DNA from: an uncultured Acidimicrobiaceae bacterium
GTDB taxonomy: Bacteria; Actinomycetota; Acidimicrobiia; Spongiisociales; ZC4RG35
NCBI GenBank assembly: GCA_964645875.1
Contig: CAZYCX010000003.1
Location: 1 to 63,439 of the forward strand
Direction: 5' to 3'
DNA: 63,439 nucleotides
The position numbers and the translations under genes are program-made. The notes beneath the pieces are model-generated. The model did no database searches. It was given only the letters and a program-made list of their open reading frames with translations, and was not told the origin of the DNA. Of the stretch, positions 5,868-56,277 are shown one piece after another (the first letter of the stretch is position 1; each line of letters starts with the position of its first letter).

Positions 5868-6138
5868 AGTATTGCGGGTTCTCGAGGATGCGCCGGTAGA
5901 AGTCGCCCGACGCGGCGGTAGCCTCGCCTCCCAGATGGGGGCGGGGGCGGGGATCTCGGCTCAGAGAACGAGCTGACTCAACCAGCCCAGGTATTGCTCG
6001 GATCCCACGAGGTCGTCGAACTCGACGGCAGTCGGAAAGGACGTGTAGCGGGGGCCAGGGCAGTCGTGACGGGCGAGCGGTTCGGCGTCGATCCCCAATG
6101 AAGCGGGATGTGTCACGGTTTCGAAAGTACGCGTGGTC

Positions 6139-30623: not shown

Positions 30624-31415
30624 TCAGCCGGCGCGGGCGGTGACCGTGACCGAGGTGGCGATACGGTCGTGGCGTGATTCGGGGACCAGCCTGCGCATCA
30701 GGTCGATGAGGTCGTCATCGAAGAGCGGATAGCCGCTGGCCTCGTCGATGCCGAATGGGACCCTTGCCACGACTTCGACATCGGTGAAACCCACCTTCTC
30801 CATTTTCGAGACGAAGACACGCTCCGCCAGGGCTCCCGACACTCACCCGGCCCAGGCCGACGGGTGCACGAGGATCTCCGATGGCAGTTCCTCCTCTTTG
30901 ATCGTCAGGTCGGATACGCACAGCCGACCACCTGGCCTCAGGATGCGTCTCGCCTCGGCGAAGACCCGGCTCTTTCGGGCGGTGAGATTGATGGTCCCGT
31001 TGGAGATGACCACGTCGGTCTCGGCGTCGTCGAAGGGCAGGTCGTCGATTTCCGCCCGGACGAATTCGACGTTCTCGTACCCCGAGTCGGCGGCGATGCG
31101 ACGAGCCCTCTGCACCATCGAGTCGAGGAAGTCGACCCCGATGACCGATCCGGCAGCACCCACCTCGTCGGAGGCGAGGAGAACGTCCATCCCCGCTCCA
31201 CAGCCGAGATCGACGACCGTCTCACCCTTCGAGAGTGCGGCATGGCGTACCGGGTCGCCCACTCCCATGGCCCACTGTCTCGCCTCCTCGGGGACGGCGG
31301 CGAGCTGCTCTGGGTCGTAGAGGCGGCCCGCCGGGTCGGCGGGGGCATCGACGGCGGTATAGGCGTCACGGACCAGAGCCTGGACCTCCTCCCTGTACAT
31401 GAGATCTCTGGTCAT
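30624..31415 (-). CDS. ArsM-fold SAM-dependent methyltransferase with in-frame TGA (30843-30845), candidate selenoprotein (MT1)
   Basis: SAM motif VVDLGCGAGMDVL and DVVISNGTINL. The two listed ORFs (30843..31415 and 30624..30842) are contiguous and in the same frame, separated only by TGA: ...HPSAWAG-TGA-VSGALAERVFVSKMEKVGFTDVEV..., which aligns to the ArsM motif W-x-G-C-[ILV]-A-G-A-L. The tail has good GC3 coding character. Confidence 0.7.
30810..30828 (-). promoter_or_regulatory. Candidate SECIS-like hairpin downstream of the MT1 UGA
   Basis: mRNA GGCGGAG-CGUGU-CUUCGUC forms 7 bp including one G-U. The apical loop starts 24 nt from the U of UGA. Confidence 0.35.
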
Positions 31416-31654
31416 CGGGCTCCGTCAGCCTCCAACTCGTCGATCAGACGCTCGAAGCGTTGCCTCAGGTCGGGAGGCATCTCGACCGTCGGTCCTCTCA
31501 TCATGAAACCTCGCATCTCCTCGGCGAACTCCATCTCCCCACAGCACCGTCGGCACAGGGCGAGATGCTGTTCGACCCTCTCCCGTTCCACGGGCTCGAC
31601 CTCCCCTTCGACGTAGTCCCACAGTTGTCTCACGGCCTCGGTGCAGTCGATCAT
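31412..31654 (-). CDS. Soluble ZAS-family (RsrA-like) anti-sigma factor
   Basis: 80 aa from MIDCTEAV. Cys4 plus H30-x3-C34-x2-C37 (HLALCRRCC). No TM segment. ATGA overlaps with the sigma gene (31651-31654) and with MT1 (31412-31415). Confidence 0.85.
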   Translation of the reverse strand: MIDCTEAVRQLWDYVEGEVEPVERERVEQHLALCRRCCGEMEFAEEMRGFMMRGPTVEMPPDLRQRFERLIDELEADGAR

Positions 31655-32235
31655 GACGGCGACTCCTCTTTCTCCCGCAGCAGGTCTCTCTCCTCCGCGT
31701 AATCCCACAGTTCCTTCTCGAAGAACTTCCGGCCGCGATGCAGCCATGACAACACCGTGTTGCGGGGCGCTCCCAGCATCCGGGACACGGATTCGACGTC
31801 GAGGCCCTCCATGTGTACCAGGACCAATGGGACGCGGTACATCGGTTTGATCCGGTCGAGAACCGCCCAGACATCTTCCTCTGAGAACGAGTGGAGGAAG
31901 TCGACGTGGACGGTGTCCGAGTACGGCCAGGGATCCTCGTCGGCGATGGTTCGATAGAGCGAGTACCCCGAAATGTCCTCCACGGGTGTCTCGTCCGGCC
32001 CGCTCGACTCGCGTCTGAAGCTGTCCCGAGCGCAGTTCACCAGGATGGTCCTGAACCAGCCCGGCGCCGCTTCGAGGTCACGCAGGTCGTCGAACGCCTG
32101 ATAGGCCTTGATCAGGCACTCCTGGACCACATCCTCGGCCCTGGGGCCGCTGAGACGGCGCGCCAGCGCGTAGAGCCAGGGAAGCTGTTGGCGAGCCACC
32201 TGCTGGAAGCTGGTCCCTTCCGAGCTCATCGCCAT
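31651..32235 (-). CDS. ECF-type RNA polymerase sigma-70 family factor
   Basis: Region 2 (AEDVVQECLIKAYQAF...WFRTILVNCARDSFRR) and region 4 (VPLVLVHMEGLDVESVSRMLGAPRNTVLSWLHRGRK). Confidence 0.9.
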   Translation of the reverse strand: MAMSSEGTSFQQVARQQLPWLYALARRLSGPRAEDVVQECLIKAYQAFDDLRDLEAAPGWFRTILVNCARDSFRRESSGPDETPVEDISGYSLYRTIADEDPWPYSDTVHVDFLHSFSEEDVWAVLDRIKPMYRVPLVLVHMEGLDVESVSRMLGAPRNTVLSWLHRGRKFFEKELWDYAEERDLLREKEESPS

Positions 32236-32244
32236 GCCACGACC

Positions 32245-33048
32245 CTAGGCAAGCGAGTCGGGCCGGTTGGGGCGTCGACCTCGAATCGGAACGCCGAAGG
32301 TTCCGTATTTCTTGGCTCTGGCCTCCCCCGGGGCACCACCGAAAGTGTCCACCCTGGGGCCGAACTCGACACCGACCAGGCCTGCTCTCTCGATCGTCGC
32401 CTTCCACCCTGCACCCGGCAGGGCACCGGCGATTCAGCCAGTCCAGAGATCGATGTCCCTCTGGGCTTCCTCCGGAATGGGCTTTTCGACCACGATGTCG
32501 GCGATCTGGAACCATCCCCCCGGTCTGAGGACTCGCATCACCTCTCGATAGGCACCGAGCTTGTCCGGCACCAGGTTGAGGACCCCGTTGGAAATGACCA
32601 CGTCGACGGACTCGTCCTCGATCGGTAGGTCCTCGGCCAGCCCCTGCCGGAATTCGAGGTTCTCCAGGCCCATCATCTTCGCGGCGTCACCGGCGCGATC
32701 GAGCATGTCGGGGGTCATGTCCACCCCGATCACTTCTCCGTTGGTGCCGACAGCGCGCGCCGCGATCACCGAGTCGAGCCCACCACCCGCGCCGACGTCG
32801 ACCACCGTGGCGTCTTCCGGGGGCAGACCCCAATGAAACGGGTTGGCGACTCCGGCGAAGGCCTCCATCACCCGGTCGGGAATGCCCTCGAGGGACGCAA
32901 CCGGGTATCCGATGTGATCCAGGGCCTTCTTCCCGGTGAAGAAGTGGTACTCGGCCGACGGCTGGGTGGCCACCTCCCGGTACTTGGCTTGGATGCCCTC
33001 CCTGAGGAGGTCTTCATCGACCACGGCTGCCTTCGCGTGCTCGATCAT
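32245..33048 (-). CDS. ArsM-fold SAM-dependent methyltransferase with in-frame TGA (32434-32436), candidate selenoprotein (MT2)
   Basis: VVDVGAGGGLDSV and DVVISNGVLNL. Read through, the sequence is ...RDIDLWTG-TGA-IAGALPGAGWKATIERAGLVGVEFGPRVDTFGGAPGEARAKKYGTFGV... ending at TAG 32245-32247, in frame (189 nt after the TGA). That stop is only 9 nt before the sigma start. Confidence 0.7.
32405..32425 (-). promoter_or_regulatory. Candidate SECIS-like hairpin downstream of the MT2 UGA
   Basis: mRNA UGCCCUG-CCGGGUG-CAGGGUG forms 7 bp including two G-U. The apical loop starts 18 nt from the U of UGA. Confidence 0.35.
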
Positions 33049-33124
33049 CGATGGTCCTTTCGTTCGCCTGGCTCAGAGACAGAGACGTGTCACGAAGCCT
33101 CGCGATTGCGCGAACGGGGTGCTC

Positions 33125-33514
33125 TCACGTCCGGCCCATCAGCCGGTCGACGGTGATCTCGATGGCGACCCGATCGGGGTTCTCCCGCGCCGGGCGATAA
33201 CGGGCCTCGAATCCACTCACCGCTCTCGCTATCCCGTCAGGATCCCGTACCACCCGCGCCTCGCCCTCGAGGGTGAGCCACCGTGGCCCGTCGACCTGGC
33301 AAACCGCGACGCGACCGTGCCTTTCGGTGTTCTTGACCTTCTGCGTATTGTCCGAGCTGATGATCCGGACCAATCCGGCATCGGCGTCGTAGGCGAATGC
33401 GACGGCGACGACATGGGGAGTCCCGTCCGGGCGGATCGTGGTCAGAGTGCCCAGGTGACGCTCCGAAAGGAACGCCTTCTCGGTGTCGGTCAGGTCGGCG
33501 GTCGTTCTCGGCAT
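33125..33514 (-). CDS. PPOX-class (pyridoxamine 5-phosphate oxidase fold) probable F420/FMN-dependent protein
   Basis: FLSERHLGTLTTIRPDGTPHVVAVAFAYD...VRIISSDNTQKVKN...RVAVCQVDGPRWLTLEGEARV. Start set at MPRTTADL (ATG 33514). Confidence 0.8.
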   Translation of the reverse strand: MPRTTADLTDTEKAFLSERHLGTLTTIRPDGTPHVVAVAFAYDADAGLVRIISSDNTQKVKNTERHGRVAVCQVDGPRWLTLEGEARVVRDPDGIARAVSGFEARYRPARENPDRVAIEITVDRLMGRT

Positions 33515-34427
33515 GCCGGGCACGGTAACCAGGGAGACGCTATTGACCGATAGGGAACAGATCGAGACCACCTACCAGGAGATACAGTCGGCTTTCTGTG
33601 CCGCTGTCGAGGTGATCGACGGGCAGGAGACGTTCGGTGTCGACGACTGGGAACGGCCGGGAGGCGGTGGCGGGATCACACGCATCCTGTCGGGCGCGGG
33701 TCACGTCGAGAAGGCGGCAGTCAACTTCAGTGCCGTGGAAGGAGCCACTCCGAAGGCGCTCTCCGAGCGGATGGCCGTCGGCAGCTCTCGGTTCTTCGCC
33801 ACCGGTGTGTCCACCATCGTCCATCCCCGCAACCCTCTCGCCCCGACCTTCCACGCCAACATCCGCTACTTCGAGACCGACACCGGTCACTCCTGGTTCG
33901 GAGGGGGAGCCGACCTGACCCCTCACTACCTGTTCGAGACCGACGCCATTCACTTCCACCGGACGTTGAAGACGGTCTGTGACAGGCATCCGGTGGCGGA
34001 CTACCGCGTCTGGAAGCAGGCATGCGACGAGTACTTCTACCTGCCCCACCGGGGCGAGGCGCGCGGCATCGGGGGGATCTTCTTCGACCATCTCACAGAT
34101 CGTCCCGACGAGATCTGGGCTTACCAGCGCGAGCTCGGGCACAGCCTGACCGATCTCTATCTGCCCATCCTGACCGCACGTCTCGACGAGGAGCACGGAG
34201 AGCGCGAGCGCGAGTGGCAGGAGGTGCGCCGGGGACGATATGCCGAGTTCAACCTGGTTTGGGATCGCGGCACCAGGTTCGGTCTCGAGACCTCGGGCCG
34301 AACCGAGTCCATCCTGGCCTCCTTGCCACCCCGGGCCCGCTGGGTCTACGGGCACGAACCGGAGCCGGGAAGTCGCGAAGCGGCGCTCCTGGAACTGGTC
34401 CGGGCACCACCCCGTGACTGGGTCTGA
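33513..34427 (+). CDS. hemF: Oxygen-dependent coproporphyrinogen III oxidase
   Basis: DDWERPGGGGGITRIL, AAVNFS, VHPRNPLAPTFHANIRYFE, WFGGGADLTPHY, GIGGIFFD. The start is uncertain (ATG 33513 or TTG 33543). Confidence 0.9.
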   Translation: MPGTVTRETLLTDREQIETTYQEIQSAFCAAVEVIDGQETFGVDDWERPGGGGGITRILSGAGHVEKAAVNFSAVEGATPKALSERMAVGSSRFFATGVSTIVHPRNPLAPTFHANIRYFETDTGHSWFGGGADLTPHYLFETDAIHFHRTLKTVCDRHPVADYRVWKQACDEYFYLPHRGEARGIGGIFFDHLTDRPDEIWAYQRELGHSLTDLYLPILTARLDEEHGEREREWQEVRRGRYAEFNLVWDRGTRFGLETSGRTESILASLPPRARWVYGHEPEPGSREAALLELVRAPPRDWV

Positions 34428-55020: not shown

Positions 55021-55123
55021 GTGGTCATCTAGAGCGGCCGAGGGACAGGCCCGACGAAGCCGCGGCAACCACTCACCGGCGAGAAGGTGCCAATGCCTGA
55101 TCGATGATGACGTCGATGAGGTG
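55021..55123 (+). promoter_or_regulatory. SAM-I (S-box) riboswitch
   Basis: TCATC-T-AGAG-C-GGCC-GAGGGA-CA-GGCCC-GA-CGAA-GCCGC-GGCAACC...GGTGCCAATGCC...GATGA matches the SAM-I core (AGAGnGG..GAGGGA..GGCCC..UGAA.CC..GCAACC..GGUGCcAAuuCC). P2 is GCGGC/GCCGC. P1 is UCAUC/GAUGA. The P1 3-prime strand runs into the SD GAGGTG, 6 nt before ATG 55129. Confidence 0.85.
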
Positions 55124-55128
55124 AACGT

Positions 55129-56277
55129 ATGGCCCGTGGTCAGGTGAACGAACCGGTCGGTGGGGAGATCGATCGGTTCTTCGACAATCGCGCCGCCTAT
55201 CTGATGTTCACGACCGCCACCAACGAGAAGGCGGTGGTCGCGGAGCGGATCGGCGCGGAGCTCGACCTGATCGGGCCGGGAGAGTCAGCCCTGAGAGTGT
55301 TCGACGCCGGCATGGGCGATGCTTCGGTGTTGAGCCAGCTGATGCGTCGCATGCACACCGTGTTCCCGCACATCCCCTGGCTGGTGGTCGCCAAGGAGAT
55401 CTCGATCGAAGACCTCCGGTTGGCTTTGGGCCGGATGCCGGACCGGCTCTTCGAGCATCCCGAGATGGTCCTGGTGGTGACCAACATGAACTATCGGGAG
55501 GCTCCCGCGTTGGTCCCGGTTGGGGACAACGCCTCCCAACTGAACTGGATCGAAGCTCCGCTCGAAGGCTCCACCGCCGACGACTTCGGCCGGCAGATCC
55601 ACGACCTCTTCGACGACCTGGCGCGTGCCTGGGAAGTGGTCACCAGCCCCAAGACCGGCAACCCCCTCTATGCCACGCCCTCGGCGCTGGTGGTCTACCG
55701 CCGTGATCGCCAGTTCATCCTGAAGCGGGTGATCCCCGAGCCGGGCGGGATCGAGGGTCGTTACGACCTCGTTGTCGCCTCGCAGCCCTACCGGGCCCGG
55801 ACCAGCGCCGAGAGGAAGACGCGGACGGTGCTGGTTCCCTTGTCCCGGGCGCTCGCTCCCGGCGGTCGCCTGGTGGTGGTCCATGCCCACGGCAACGACC
55901 CCGGTCTCGAGATCATCCGCAACGTCTGGCCGGGCGAGGACCCGTTCCAGACCGGGCGTGCAGACCTGTTGGCCGAGGCACAACGCCAACTCACCGATCC
56001 CGAGGACGCCGCTTTGGTGTATCCCCACCTCAGCGACGAGGAGGCGATCTTCCGTTACGAACTCCACGCGATGCCCTCCGAGAGGACGGAGCACATCGGG
56101 ACCGGCCTGACCCTCGCCGCCTGGAACGCCGCCGCCTACGTTGCCCAGATAGACGAGTCCCGGCTCTCTGCTGCCATGGCCTCCGGCGTCTACGTGGAGG
56201 CGACCCGGGAGGTCCTGGCGCGCTACGGAGGGGTCTGGTTCAACGACGAGGCGTACGTGATCACCCGCTCAGTGTGA
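55129..56277 (+). CDS. Uncharacterised protein with class I methyltransferase-fold motifs, under SAM-I riboswitch control
   Basis: 382 aa. LRVFDAGMGDASV (motif I-like) and YDLVVASQPY...LAPGGRLVVVHAHG (post-motif-like), separated by a long insertion. Family not recognised. Confidence 0.8.
   Translation: MARGQVNEPVGGEIDRFFDNRAAYLMFTTATNEKAVVAERIGAELDLIGPGESALRVFDAGMGDASVLSQLMRRMHTVFPHIPWLVVAKEISIEDLRLALGRMPDRLFEHPEMVLVVTNMNYREAPALVPVGDNASQLNWIEAPLEGSTADDFGRQIHDLFDDLARAWEVVTSPKTGNPLYATPSALVVYRRDRQFILKRVIPEPGGIEGRYDLVVASQPYRARTSAERKTRTVLVPLSRALAPGGRLVVVHAHGNDPGLEIIRNVWPGEDPFQTGRADLLAEAQRQLTDPEDAALVYPHLSDEEAIFRYELHAMPSERTEHIGTGLTLAAWNAAAYVAQIDESRLSAAMASGVYVEATREVLARYGGVWFNDEAYVITRSV

Follow-up and report, generated by a model that had tools for sequence, protein, structure and literature searches.

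To our knowledge, most groups of ECF (extracytoplasmic function) sigma factors lack a known signal or output. Among the described systems, the SigR-RsrA pair of Streptomyces coelicolor and the SigH-RshA pair of mycobacteria form the thiol-oxidative-stress switch of group ECF12. In group ECF41, there is precedent for an ECF operon with a single adjacent target gene (PMC3426412). On the enzymatic side, the Mdd enzymes of Actinomycetota methylate H2S and methanethiol as a detoxification and are induced by oxidative stress (PMC12904073). An arsenite methyltransferase with a UxxG selenocysteine (Sec) motif is listed among the experimentally verified prokaryotic selenoproteins in Table 1 of PMC13188914, which cites Fomenko et al. 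2007, and three ArsM-fusion selenoproteins (Haft & Tolstoy 2025) have the NCBIfam models NF041536, NF041537 and NF047649 (PMC13188914; PMC9312934). Here, we analysed a stretch of 63,439 nucleotides from an uncultured Acidimicrobiaceae bacterium (contig CAZYCX010000003.1; hereafter the window), whose minus strand carries, at 30624-33048, a cassette of an ECF sigma factor, a zinc-binding anti-sigma factor (ZAS) and two UGA-containing methyltransferases, MT1 and MT2. The cassette appears to be an ECF/ZAS switch paired with ArsM-fold selenoproteins, conserved across phyla and undescribed in the literature searched.

MT2 (33048..32245) is the first gene of the cassette and encodes 267 amino acids in translation if its in-frame TGA is read through to a TAG stop at 32247-32245. 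Nine nucleotides separate this stop from the ATG, at 32235, of the ECF (group 4) sigma gene (32235..31651, 194 amino acids). The ZAS gene (31654..31412, 80 amino acids) has an ATGA overlap at both ends, at 31654-31651 with the stop codon of the sigma gene and at 31415-31412 with the start codon of MT1 (31415..30624), whose translation gives 263 amino acids with the TGA read through. The gene order, the 9-nucleotide gap, the ATGA overlaps and the UGAs had been given in an initial annotation of this DNA, and the sequence and its translations agree with them in every detail. Its domain calls were likewise backed by Pfam, with Sigma70_r2 and Sigma70_r4_2 in the sigma factor, zf-HC2 in the ZAS and Methyltransf_31 in both methyltransferases. 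A promoter scan found no sigma-70-like promoter anywhere in the cassette, and a terminator scan found no terminator-like site on its minus strand and a single one on the opposite strand.

The sigma factor has Sigma70_r2 (45.5 bits) and Sigma70_r4_2 (32.3 bits) as its only Pfam matches, with neither a sigma-3 nor a sigma-1 region in its 194 residues, and scores 56.9 bits against TIGR02937 (sigma70-ECF; cutoff 42.9). These matches assign it to the ECF (group 4) sigma-70 family. Against SigH_actino TIGR02947 it scores 82.1 bits (cutoff 251.55), below the equivalog level of the ECF12 proteins SigR and SigH. The anti-sigma factor matches zf-HC2 at 2.5e-10 (40.7 bits, cutoff 22.2), which assigns it to the ZAS family. 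A small, soluble ZAS with Cys4 plus H30-x3-C34-x2-C37 had been proposed at the outset, and this description holds: the ligands are laid out as C-x25-H-x3-C-x2-C with the same spacing as in RsrA, and six divergent orthologues all conserve C4, H30, C34, C37 and C38.

Two surveys addressed the conservation of the cassette. One was anchored on MT2, by a protein search that returned thousands of relatives and by context look-ups of eight of them; the other was anchored on the sigma factor, an alignment of which was used to search species-representative genomes before tblastn was run. The nearest MT2 relatives were products of 201-208 amino acids, cut at the UGA, and their named carriers were Acidimicrobiia metagenome-assembled genomes (MAGs); relatives of about 260 amino acids came next, at about 52% identity. 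The sigma, ZAS and MT1 genes were adjacent in all eight look-ups, in surroundings that varied from heme and Mrp genes, as in the window, to OsmC with a PemK toxin, OsmC with DUF4262, and integrases. The sigma-anchored survey gave 18 loci (numbered with the prefix L) with a sigma identity of at least 35% (35-86%), of which 17 were readable past the sigma gene, L027 ending just after it. MT1 lay downstream of the sigma gene in 17/17 readable loci, with a ZAS gene between them in 16 of the 17 (the exception being L033). In the scanned loci whose sigma relative has 33% identity or less, a methyltransferase gene was seen nearby just once, in L035, where it encodes a canonical ArsM and lies on the opposite strand. 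Since the arrangement recurs in the look-ups and in the scan with differing flanking genes, it is not due to chance. Its carriers include Acidimicrobiia, Pseudonocardia, Actinosynnema sp. CA-248983, Gaiellaceae, Nitriliruptoraceae, a Vicinamibacterales acidobacterium and others; the cassette of Actinosynnema sp. CA-248983 is of the Cys type and lies near 5.11 Mb in a complete genome (CP191863) of what is apparently a cultured isolate. The synteny survey that the initial annotation had suggested thus recovered the cassette by both routes, and the unit recurs in several phyla.

The four genes of that annotation do form a conserved unit, but the place of MT2 in it varies. MT2 is upstream within the operon in cassettes of the window type, downstream in L013, L015, L019, L023, L029 and L097, divergent in L024, L027 and L028, and absent from 9 of the 18 sigma-anchored loci. 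As judged from these neighbourhoods, the invariant core is sigma-ZAS-MT1, and MT2 is a movable member of the predicted regulon. In L033 (4863-6001; 'Candidatus Fervidifonticultor quintus'), there is no ZAS gene, and the sigma gene seems to be frameshifted towards its 3' end and overlaps a Sec-form MT1, which reflects either a real loss of the anti-sigma factor or an assembly error.

A spaced-dyad search upstream of the sigma gene revealed GCAAT-N17/18-CGTC in 15 of the 19 loci that have sigma as their first gene, with the consensus (A/G)(T/C)GCAAT-N17-CGTC(C/T)T. Orthologous loci (204 kb) contain 40 copies of the dyad and loci with non-orthologous ECF sigma factors (540 kb) contain 8, a 13-fold enrichment. 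With the instance in the window counted, 33 of 41 instances lie directly upstream of a sigma, MT2, OsmC-like, membrane protein or DsrE-like gene, 30 of them within about 110 nucleotides of the cassette gene and three, all DsrE cases, about 250 nucleotides away. Where OsmC precedes MT2 (L011 and L016), the motif shifts to just upstream of OsmC. In the window, the initial annotation had suggested a search for an ECF-type -35/-10 element upstream of 33048 or inside MT2, and a match was found at 33109..33084 on the minus strand (-35 GCAAT at 33109-33105, a 17-nucleotide spacer, -10 CGTC at 33087-33084), 61 nucleotides before the ATG of MT2, which extends the unit upstream. This predicted promoter sits inside the 76-nucleotide gap between MT2 and an F420-dependent PPOX-class oxidoreductase gene (33125-33571, minus strand; TIGR03618, 98.9 bits, above cutoff). 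The PPOX gene probably lies outside the operon, the predicted promoter being located past its stop codon. We considered this gene as an operon member and rejected it, with the motif lying between PPOX and MT2 and OsmC replacing PPOX in other loci. In six loci (L017, L021, L024, L026, L027 and L030), two divergent copies of the motif with back-to-back -35 boxes (ATTGC-N14/15-GCAAT) stand just upstream of sigma and would drive sigma on one side and an OsmC-like, MT2 or membrane protein gene on the other.

Clustering of the neighbouring open reading frames (ORFs) identified three recurrent families: OsmC-like proteins in 9 loci, a four-helix membrane protein (four transmembrane segments, no Pfam family) in 6 loci and DsrE-like proteins in 4 loci. 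Two of these co-regulated partners are of the OsmC (thiol peroxidase) and DsrE (sulfur carrier) types, which suggests chemistry on thiols or sulfur. No homologue of the OsmC-like, DsrE-like or membrane proteins was found in the window, and the two methyltransferases are therefore the only local cargo. The proposal that they are the sole cargo of the switch thus stands within the window, behind the predicted promoter, but fails in relatives, in which the OsmC-like, DsrE-like and membrane proteins join the regulon.

It could be argued that MT1 is a signalling part rather than cargo, either as a co-regulator that modifies ZAS or sigma, for example by methylating a Zn-bound Cys, or as a ligand sensor that signals to ZAS. 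The position of MT1 is fixed while that of MT2 is free, and MT1 follows directly after ZAS wherever a ZAS gene exists, which is everywhere except in L033, and the stop codon of ZAS often overlaps the start codon of MT1. However, L033 retains sigma and MT1 without ZAS, and MT2, a paralogue with the same active-site pattern, has its own promoter copy as a classical regulon member. The extra invariant Cys of ZAS, C38, would suit a partner that acts on ZAS, whereas a nucleophilic Sec or Cys placed where ArsM binds its substrate is in keeping with a small molecule as substrate, and a single adjacent target gene has its precedent in ECF41 (PMC3426412). On balance, a signalling role for MT1 seems unlikely to us, and we favour the reading of both methyltransferases as output.

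Both proteins match Methyltransf_31 (MT2, 3.9e-31; MT1, 5.1e-31), and their best PDB matches are ArsM structures: 5evj (8e-27) and 4fr0 (1e-23) for MT2, and 5evj (1.3e-27) for MT1. The two structures are of arsenite methyltransferases from Chlamydomonas (5evj) and Cyanidioschyzon (4fr0), and the matches (1e-27 to 1e-23) span the SAM (S-adenosylmethionine)-binding and As-binding domains, which settles the predicted ArsM fold of MT1 and MT2. The Sec of both aligns with Cys224 of CmArsM ('GEC-LAGAL'), which is one of the As(III) ligands. Cys72 and Cys174 of CmArsM, by which the As(III) site and the catalytic disulfide cascade are completed, have no equivalents: the sequence is GVANP or GVGDP where CmArsM has Cys72 (GCGNP), and SNG where it has Cys174 (SNC). 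All 39 alignment rows of sigma-linked MT1 and MT2 copies share this Val/Gly/Sec-or-Cys pattern. All three Cys are kept in the unlinked ArsM of L035, the only ArsM-like gene beside a non-orthologous sigma gene. MT2 of the window contains no cysteine in the whole protein. Among NCBIfam models, the best match of both is PRK11873 'arsenite methyltransferase', at 221.1 bits for MT1 and 199.8 bits for MT2, both under the cutoff of 263. The models NF041537 (ArsM_AhpD_UU), NF041536 (ArsM_DUF2284_UU) and NF047649 (MTase_UXPK_star) score 156-220 bits versus cutoffs of 460-575; these matches cover the methyltransferase domain only, and each protein has one Sec and no AhpD, DUF2284 or UXPK module. Because the ArsM fold is kept but a defining feature of ArsM is missing, we file MT1 and MT2, from their alignments, as a distinct single-nucleophile subfamily of the ArsM family. 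The earlier designation as ArsM-fold methyltransferases therefore holds for the fold but not for ArsM function, with two of the three arsenite-binding Cys missing. In L013 (3736-4902), MT1 is 388 amino acids long and carries a C-terminal cupin (AraC_binding) extension.

These data bear on the possibility that MT1 and MT2 are ordinary arsenite methyltransferases and the module an ECF-controlled operon for arsenic resistance. That PRK11873 tops the NCBIfam matches (221 and 200 bits) would agree with it, but neither score reaches 263; likewise, ArsM structures top the PDB matches and the Sec column corresponds to the As(III) ligand Cys224, but Val and Gly replace Cys72 and Cys174 in all 39 sigma-linked rows, while the unlinked L035 protein keeps its three Cys and MT2 has no Cys at all. 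The arsenite methyltransferase with the UxxG motif is an accepted selenoprotein family (PMC13188914), and As(III) could in principle bind a Zn-thiolate ZAS. Neither arsB/acr3 nor arsC was found in the gene tables of the looked-up loci, however, although a gene encoding a fusion of an ArsR-family (HTH_5) domain with rhodanese does lie upstream in L011, L012 and L098. Moreover, the co-regulated partners are OsmC-like and DsrE-like proteins, not ars genes. With Val and Gly standing in for Cys72 and Cys174 throughout the sigma-linked copies, arsenite methylation is unlikely to be the job of these enzymes; MT1 and MT2 are probably not true arsenite methyltransferases, and an arsenic-resistance operon is an improbable account of the cassette. 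The initial annotation had left open whether Sec-containing ArsM homologues are new; they were already catalogued (Fomenko et al. 2007 and the NCBIfam models, as cited in PMC13188914).

The ArsR-rhodanese fusion gene lies with a divergent MFS transporter gene directly upstream of OsmC in L011 (3242-5278), L012 (63-2100) and L098 (1285-3315), which hints at persulfide or sulfur chemistry near these cassettes. Sulfur or selenium is favoured as substrate because of the OsmC-like and DsrE-like partners and because several cassettes have the ArsR-rhodanese gene upstream. A soft chalcogen or metalloid is a tentative assignment for the substrate class of MT1 and MT2, plausible if somewhat short of probable. 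The OsmC-like partner itself (L016 334-900 and relatives) has its best NCBIfam match in NF041052 'OsmC-related (seleno)protein', at 58 bits, below the cutoff of 95.

The UGA of MT2 (32436-32434, minus strand) specifies residue 205 in the context DLWTG-U-IAGAL, and that of MT1 (30845-30843, minus strand) residue 191 in the context SAWAG-U-VSGAL. In the alignment of orthologues, the MT2 UGA column is Cys in L013, L015 and L097, and the MT1 UGA column is Cys in L013, L015, L018-L020, L022, L025, L031 and L032, giving the motifs DLWT[GD][U/C]IAG for MT2 and AWAG[U/C][VIL][SA]GA for MT1. The UGA is fixed at one column in more than ten lineages (42-78% identity), and its substitutes are Cys codons only. 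In related loci, each UGA is followed by an open frame of 57-78 codons, in which many codons differ solely at synonymous sites; protein identity to the window after the UGA is 0.40-0.84, tracking the 0.47-0.78 over the 180 residues before it.

A hairpin resembling a selenocysteine insertion sequence (SECIS) follows each UGA; both were assessed by register-specific pairing, not by bulk folding energy. The hairpin of MT2 (32406..32424, minus strand) starts 10 nucleotides past the UGA and consists of a 7-bp stem, GCCCUGC/GCAGGGU, and a loop, CGGGU. Across 10 Sec-form sequences, 95.7% of its cells are paired versus 26-51% in slid control registers, two pairs show compensatory changes (CG to GC and CG to UA), and RNAfold predicts the hairpin in 8 of the 10 Sec forms. 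The hairpin of MT1 (30810..30828, minus strand) starts 15 nucleotides past the UGA, with the stem GGCGGAG/CUUCGUC and the loop CGUGU. Its nucleotides are invariant in 13 Sec-form orthologues with only 47-78% protein identity, with 98.9% of cells paired, and an Arg codon within it is CGU in 13/13 Sec forms and CGG in most Cys forms. No Rfam match to a SECIS family was found in the window at gathering thresholds. A crude scan of the window for in-frame-UGA genes by GC content at third codon positions (GC3) recovered MT1 and four unconvincing candidates and missed MT2.

The Cys alternation, the conserved downstream frame and the hairpins bear out the initial annotation of both methyltransferases as selenoproteins, and these comparisons indicate that both UGAs are real Sec codons. 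Selenium, which had been taken as a dedicated feature of the output, is not a defining one: many cassettes use Cys, among them orthologous cassettes of Pseudonocardia, Actinosynnema, Nitriliruptoraceae and others. That the UGAs are true stops, and the methyltransferases truncated pseudogenes or split genes of a decaying cassette, as gene callers and public annotation imply by ending the proteins at UGA and as a window without visible Sec machinery might suggest, was the outcome named in advance as fatal to the initial proposal, and it is refuted in comparative data by the fixed UGA column that is swapped only for Cys codons, by the downstream frame with a protein identity equal to that of the body, by the conserved hairpins and by the conserved C-terminal part of the fold, which would be missing from truncated products.

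Public gene calls (L007-L012 and the database matches) stop both methyltransferases at the UGA, giving products of 190 and of 201-208 amino acids, and the tail of MT1 is called as a separate 'ORF' of 72-73 amino acids in public records. No read-through version of a close relative was found among the database matches of the MT2 search. L097 (3138-4783) holds a mixed cassette, in which MT1 has a UGA (called as 190 plus 78 amino acids) and the adjoining MT2 is a full-length, 260-amino-acid Cys form. In L032, at about 2254-2300, a Cys-form MT1 carries the exact nucleotides of the Sec-form hairpin (GGCGGAGCGUGUCUUCGUC); the retention of these nucleotides suggests a recent Sec-to-Cys conversion.

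Taken together, we propose that the cassette is one autoregulated operon, P(ECF)-MT2-sigma-ZAS-MT1, with co-transcription deduced from its layout. At rest, the cytoplasmic ZAS would hold the ECF sigma factor inactive. A thiol-reactive agent would attack the Zn-thiolate site of ZAS (C4/H30/C34/C37) and free the sigma factor; candidate triggers are oxidants, electrophiles, reactive forms of sulfur or selenium, and soft metalloids. The free sigma factor would then direct transcription from the GCAAT-N17-CGTC promoter and so amplify the operon that encodes it. The output would be the two paralogous ArsM-fold SAM methyltransferases, each with one active-site nucleophile, here Sec. Their lone selenol or thiol may capture soft chalcogen or metalloid species (candidates are sulfane sulfur, sulfide, selenide or selenite adducts, tellurite and a thiol-liganded metalloid) and then methylate the captured species, and methylation would remove the agent that tripped the switch. 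Such a role has a functional precedent, because H2S and methanethiol methyltransferases of Actinomycetota are induced by oxidative stress (PMC12904073). We regard the regulatory architecture as highly probable and this explanation as a whole as rather likely; the redox or thiol trigger is conjecture. A more far-reaching version is that MT1 and MT2 represent a new class of single-selenol/single-thiol SAM methyltransferases, in which sulfane sulfur or selenium would be bound covalently on the lone Sec or Cys as a mixed Se-S or Se-Se adduct, its terminal atom methylated and recycling aided by the OsmC-like and DsrE-like partners. These same species would be what the ZAS senses, and the cassette would be a self-contained reactive-chalcogen stress regulon in several phyla. 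This version is speculative, and we hold it as doubtful though worth stating.

Several points weigh against the proposed operon and its function. Co-transcription and sigma dependence are inferred from the position of the motif. The 63-kb window contains one dyad match, where about 1.1 are expected by chance, and therefore the promoter call in the window draws on position and on the cross-locus pattern, not on the count. The ZAS scores 45.3 bits against the RsrA equivalog TIGR03988, below the cutoff of 62.5. Some ZAS proteins are not redox-sensitive, and the layout of the sequence by itself cannot decide redox sensitivity. The strict coupling of MT1 to ZAS could also make MT1 part of the sensor, not of the output. 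With regard to Sec, the MT1 hairpin shows no covariation among its 13 Sec forms and is, taken alone, only suggestive of a SECIS element, and the overall folding energy of the 48 nucleotides after UGA or UGC fails to separate Sec from Cys forms in this GC-rich background. Genes selA, selB, selC and selD and tRNA-Sec were not found in the window or in the fetched loci (23 cassette loci for tRNA-Sec), so the Sec machinery of the host is presumed. Finally, the substrate of MT1 and MT2 is likewise inferred.

Other features were noted around the cassettes. L007 is flanked as in the window, with a PPOX neighbour, heme-biosynthesis genes and an Mrp antiporter. A GC-rich inverted repeat lies in the gap between the OsmC stop and the MT2 start in L009 (about 5935-6000), L011 (about 5935-6000; e.g. 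cctgacggagggcggacagccctccgtcagg) and L016 (about 900-975), and might serve the operon as an internal attenuator, processing site or stabiliser. The only Rfam match in the window is a SAM riboswitch (RF00162) at 55022-55110 on the plus strand (72.7 bits, E 4e-15), just upstream of a 382-amino-acid ORF at 55129-56277.

The cassette is among the more tractable of the uncharacterised ECF modules, because its output is small, conserved and enzymatic and its promoter is predictable, and the Cys-type version in Actinosynnema sp. CA-248983 offers an experimental route. As this methyltransferase branch has retained a single nucleophile and lost the pair that binds arsenite, the potential for arsenic methylation is probably overstated where metagenome annotations read 'arsenite methyltransferase'. 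Selenoproteins have also been missed: several public records, including three from Acidimicrobiia MAGs, give only the UGA-cut forms. If the substrate is sulfur or selenium, the cassette would give Actinomycetota of soil and sediment an additional, regulated means of forming volatile methylated chalcogens.

In the literature searched, no paper was found that combines an ECF sigma factor, an anti-sigma factor and an arsenite methyltransferase. Methyltransferase, OsmC and DsrE all go unmentioned in the main text of the ECF reclassification paper, and the group could still be tabulated in that paper. The statement of the initial annotation that no system of this composition had been described is thus consistent with the literature searched, with the qualification that the supplementary tables of the reclassification paper may list the group.

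SigR-RsrA and SigH-RshA resemble the cassette in combining an ECF sigma factor with a small cytoplasmic ZAS, in the ligand layout of the latter, in translationally coupled genes and in the predicted autoregulation. However, the cassette is not their orthologue (82 versus 251 for SigH_actino and 45 versus 62.5 for the RsrA model), and its GCAAT-N17/18-CGTC promoter differs from the GGAAT-N18-GTT of SigR targets. Its output is small and local, consisting of the methyltransferases with or without OsmC-like and DsrE-like proteins, whereas SigR controls a large thioredoxin and mycothiol regulon, and redox sensing in the cassette is a prediction from the layout.

The Mdd S-methyltransferases MddH, MddM1 and MddM2 (PMC11445057, PMC12904073) are, like MT1 and MT2, cytoplasmic class I SAM methyltransferases, but the published description sets them apart, in other subfamilies (UbiG/UbiE type, 204-210 amino acids). 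We considered MddM1 and MddM2 as members of the same family as MT1 and MT2 and rejected this on the basis of that description. The words 'selenocysteine' and 'sigma' (as a factor) do not occur in the MddM paper.

In the ECF41 modules (PMC3426412), a conserved neighbour likewise seems to be the main or only target of the ECF sigma factor. Unlike the cassette, these modules have no anti-sigma factor and are regulated by a fused C-terminal domain, and their target is a COE-family enzyme, not a methyltransferase. With ArsM/AS3MT, including the selenoprotein form (NF008823, NF041536, NF041537, NF047649), the cassette methyltransferases share the fold and the SAM-binding motifs, Sec or Cys at the Cys224 position of CmArsM, the U/C-x-x-G-A motif and the interchange of Sec and Cys. 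They differ in the missing equivalents of Cys72 and Cys174, in scores under all NCBIfam cutoffs, in having no fusion domains and no ars neighbours, and in their constant linkage to a sigma/anti-sigma pair.

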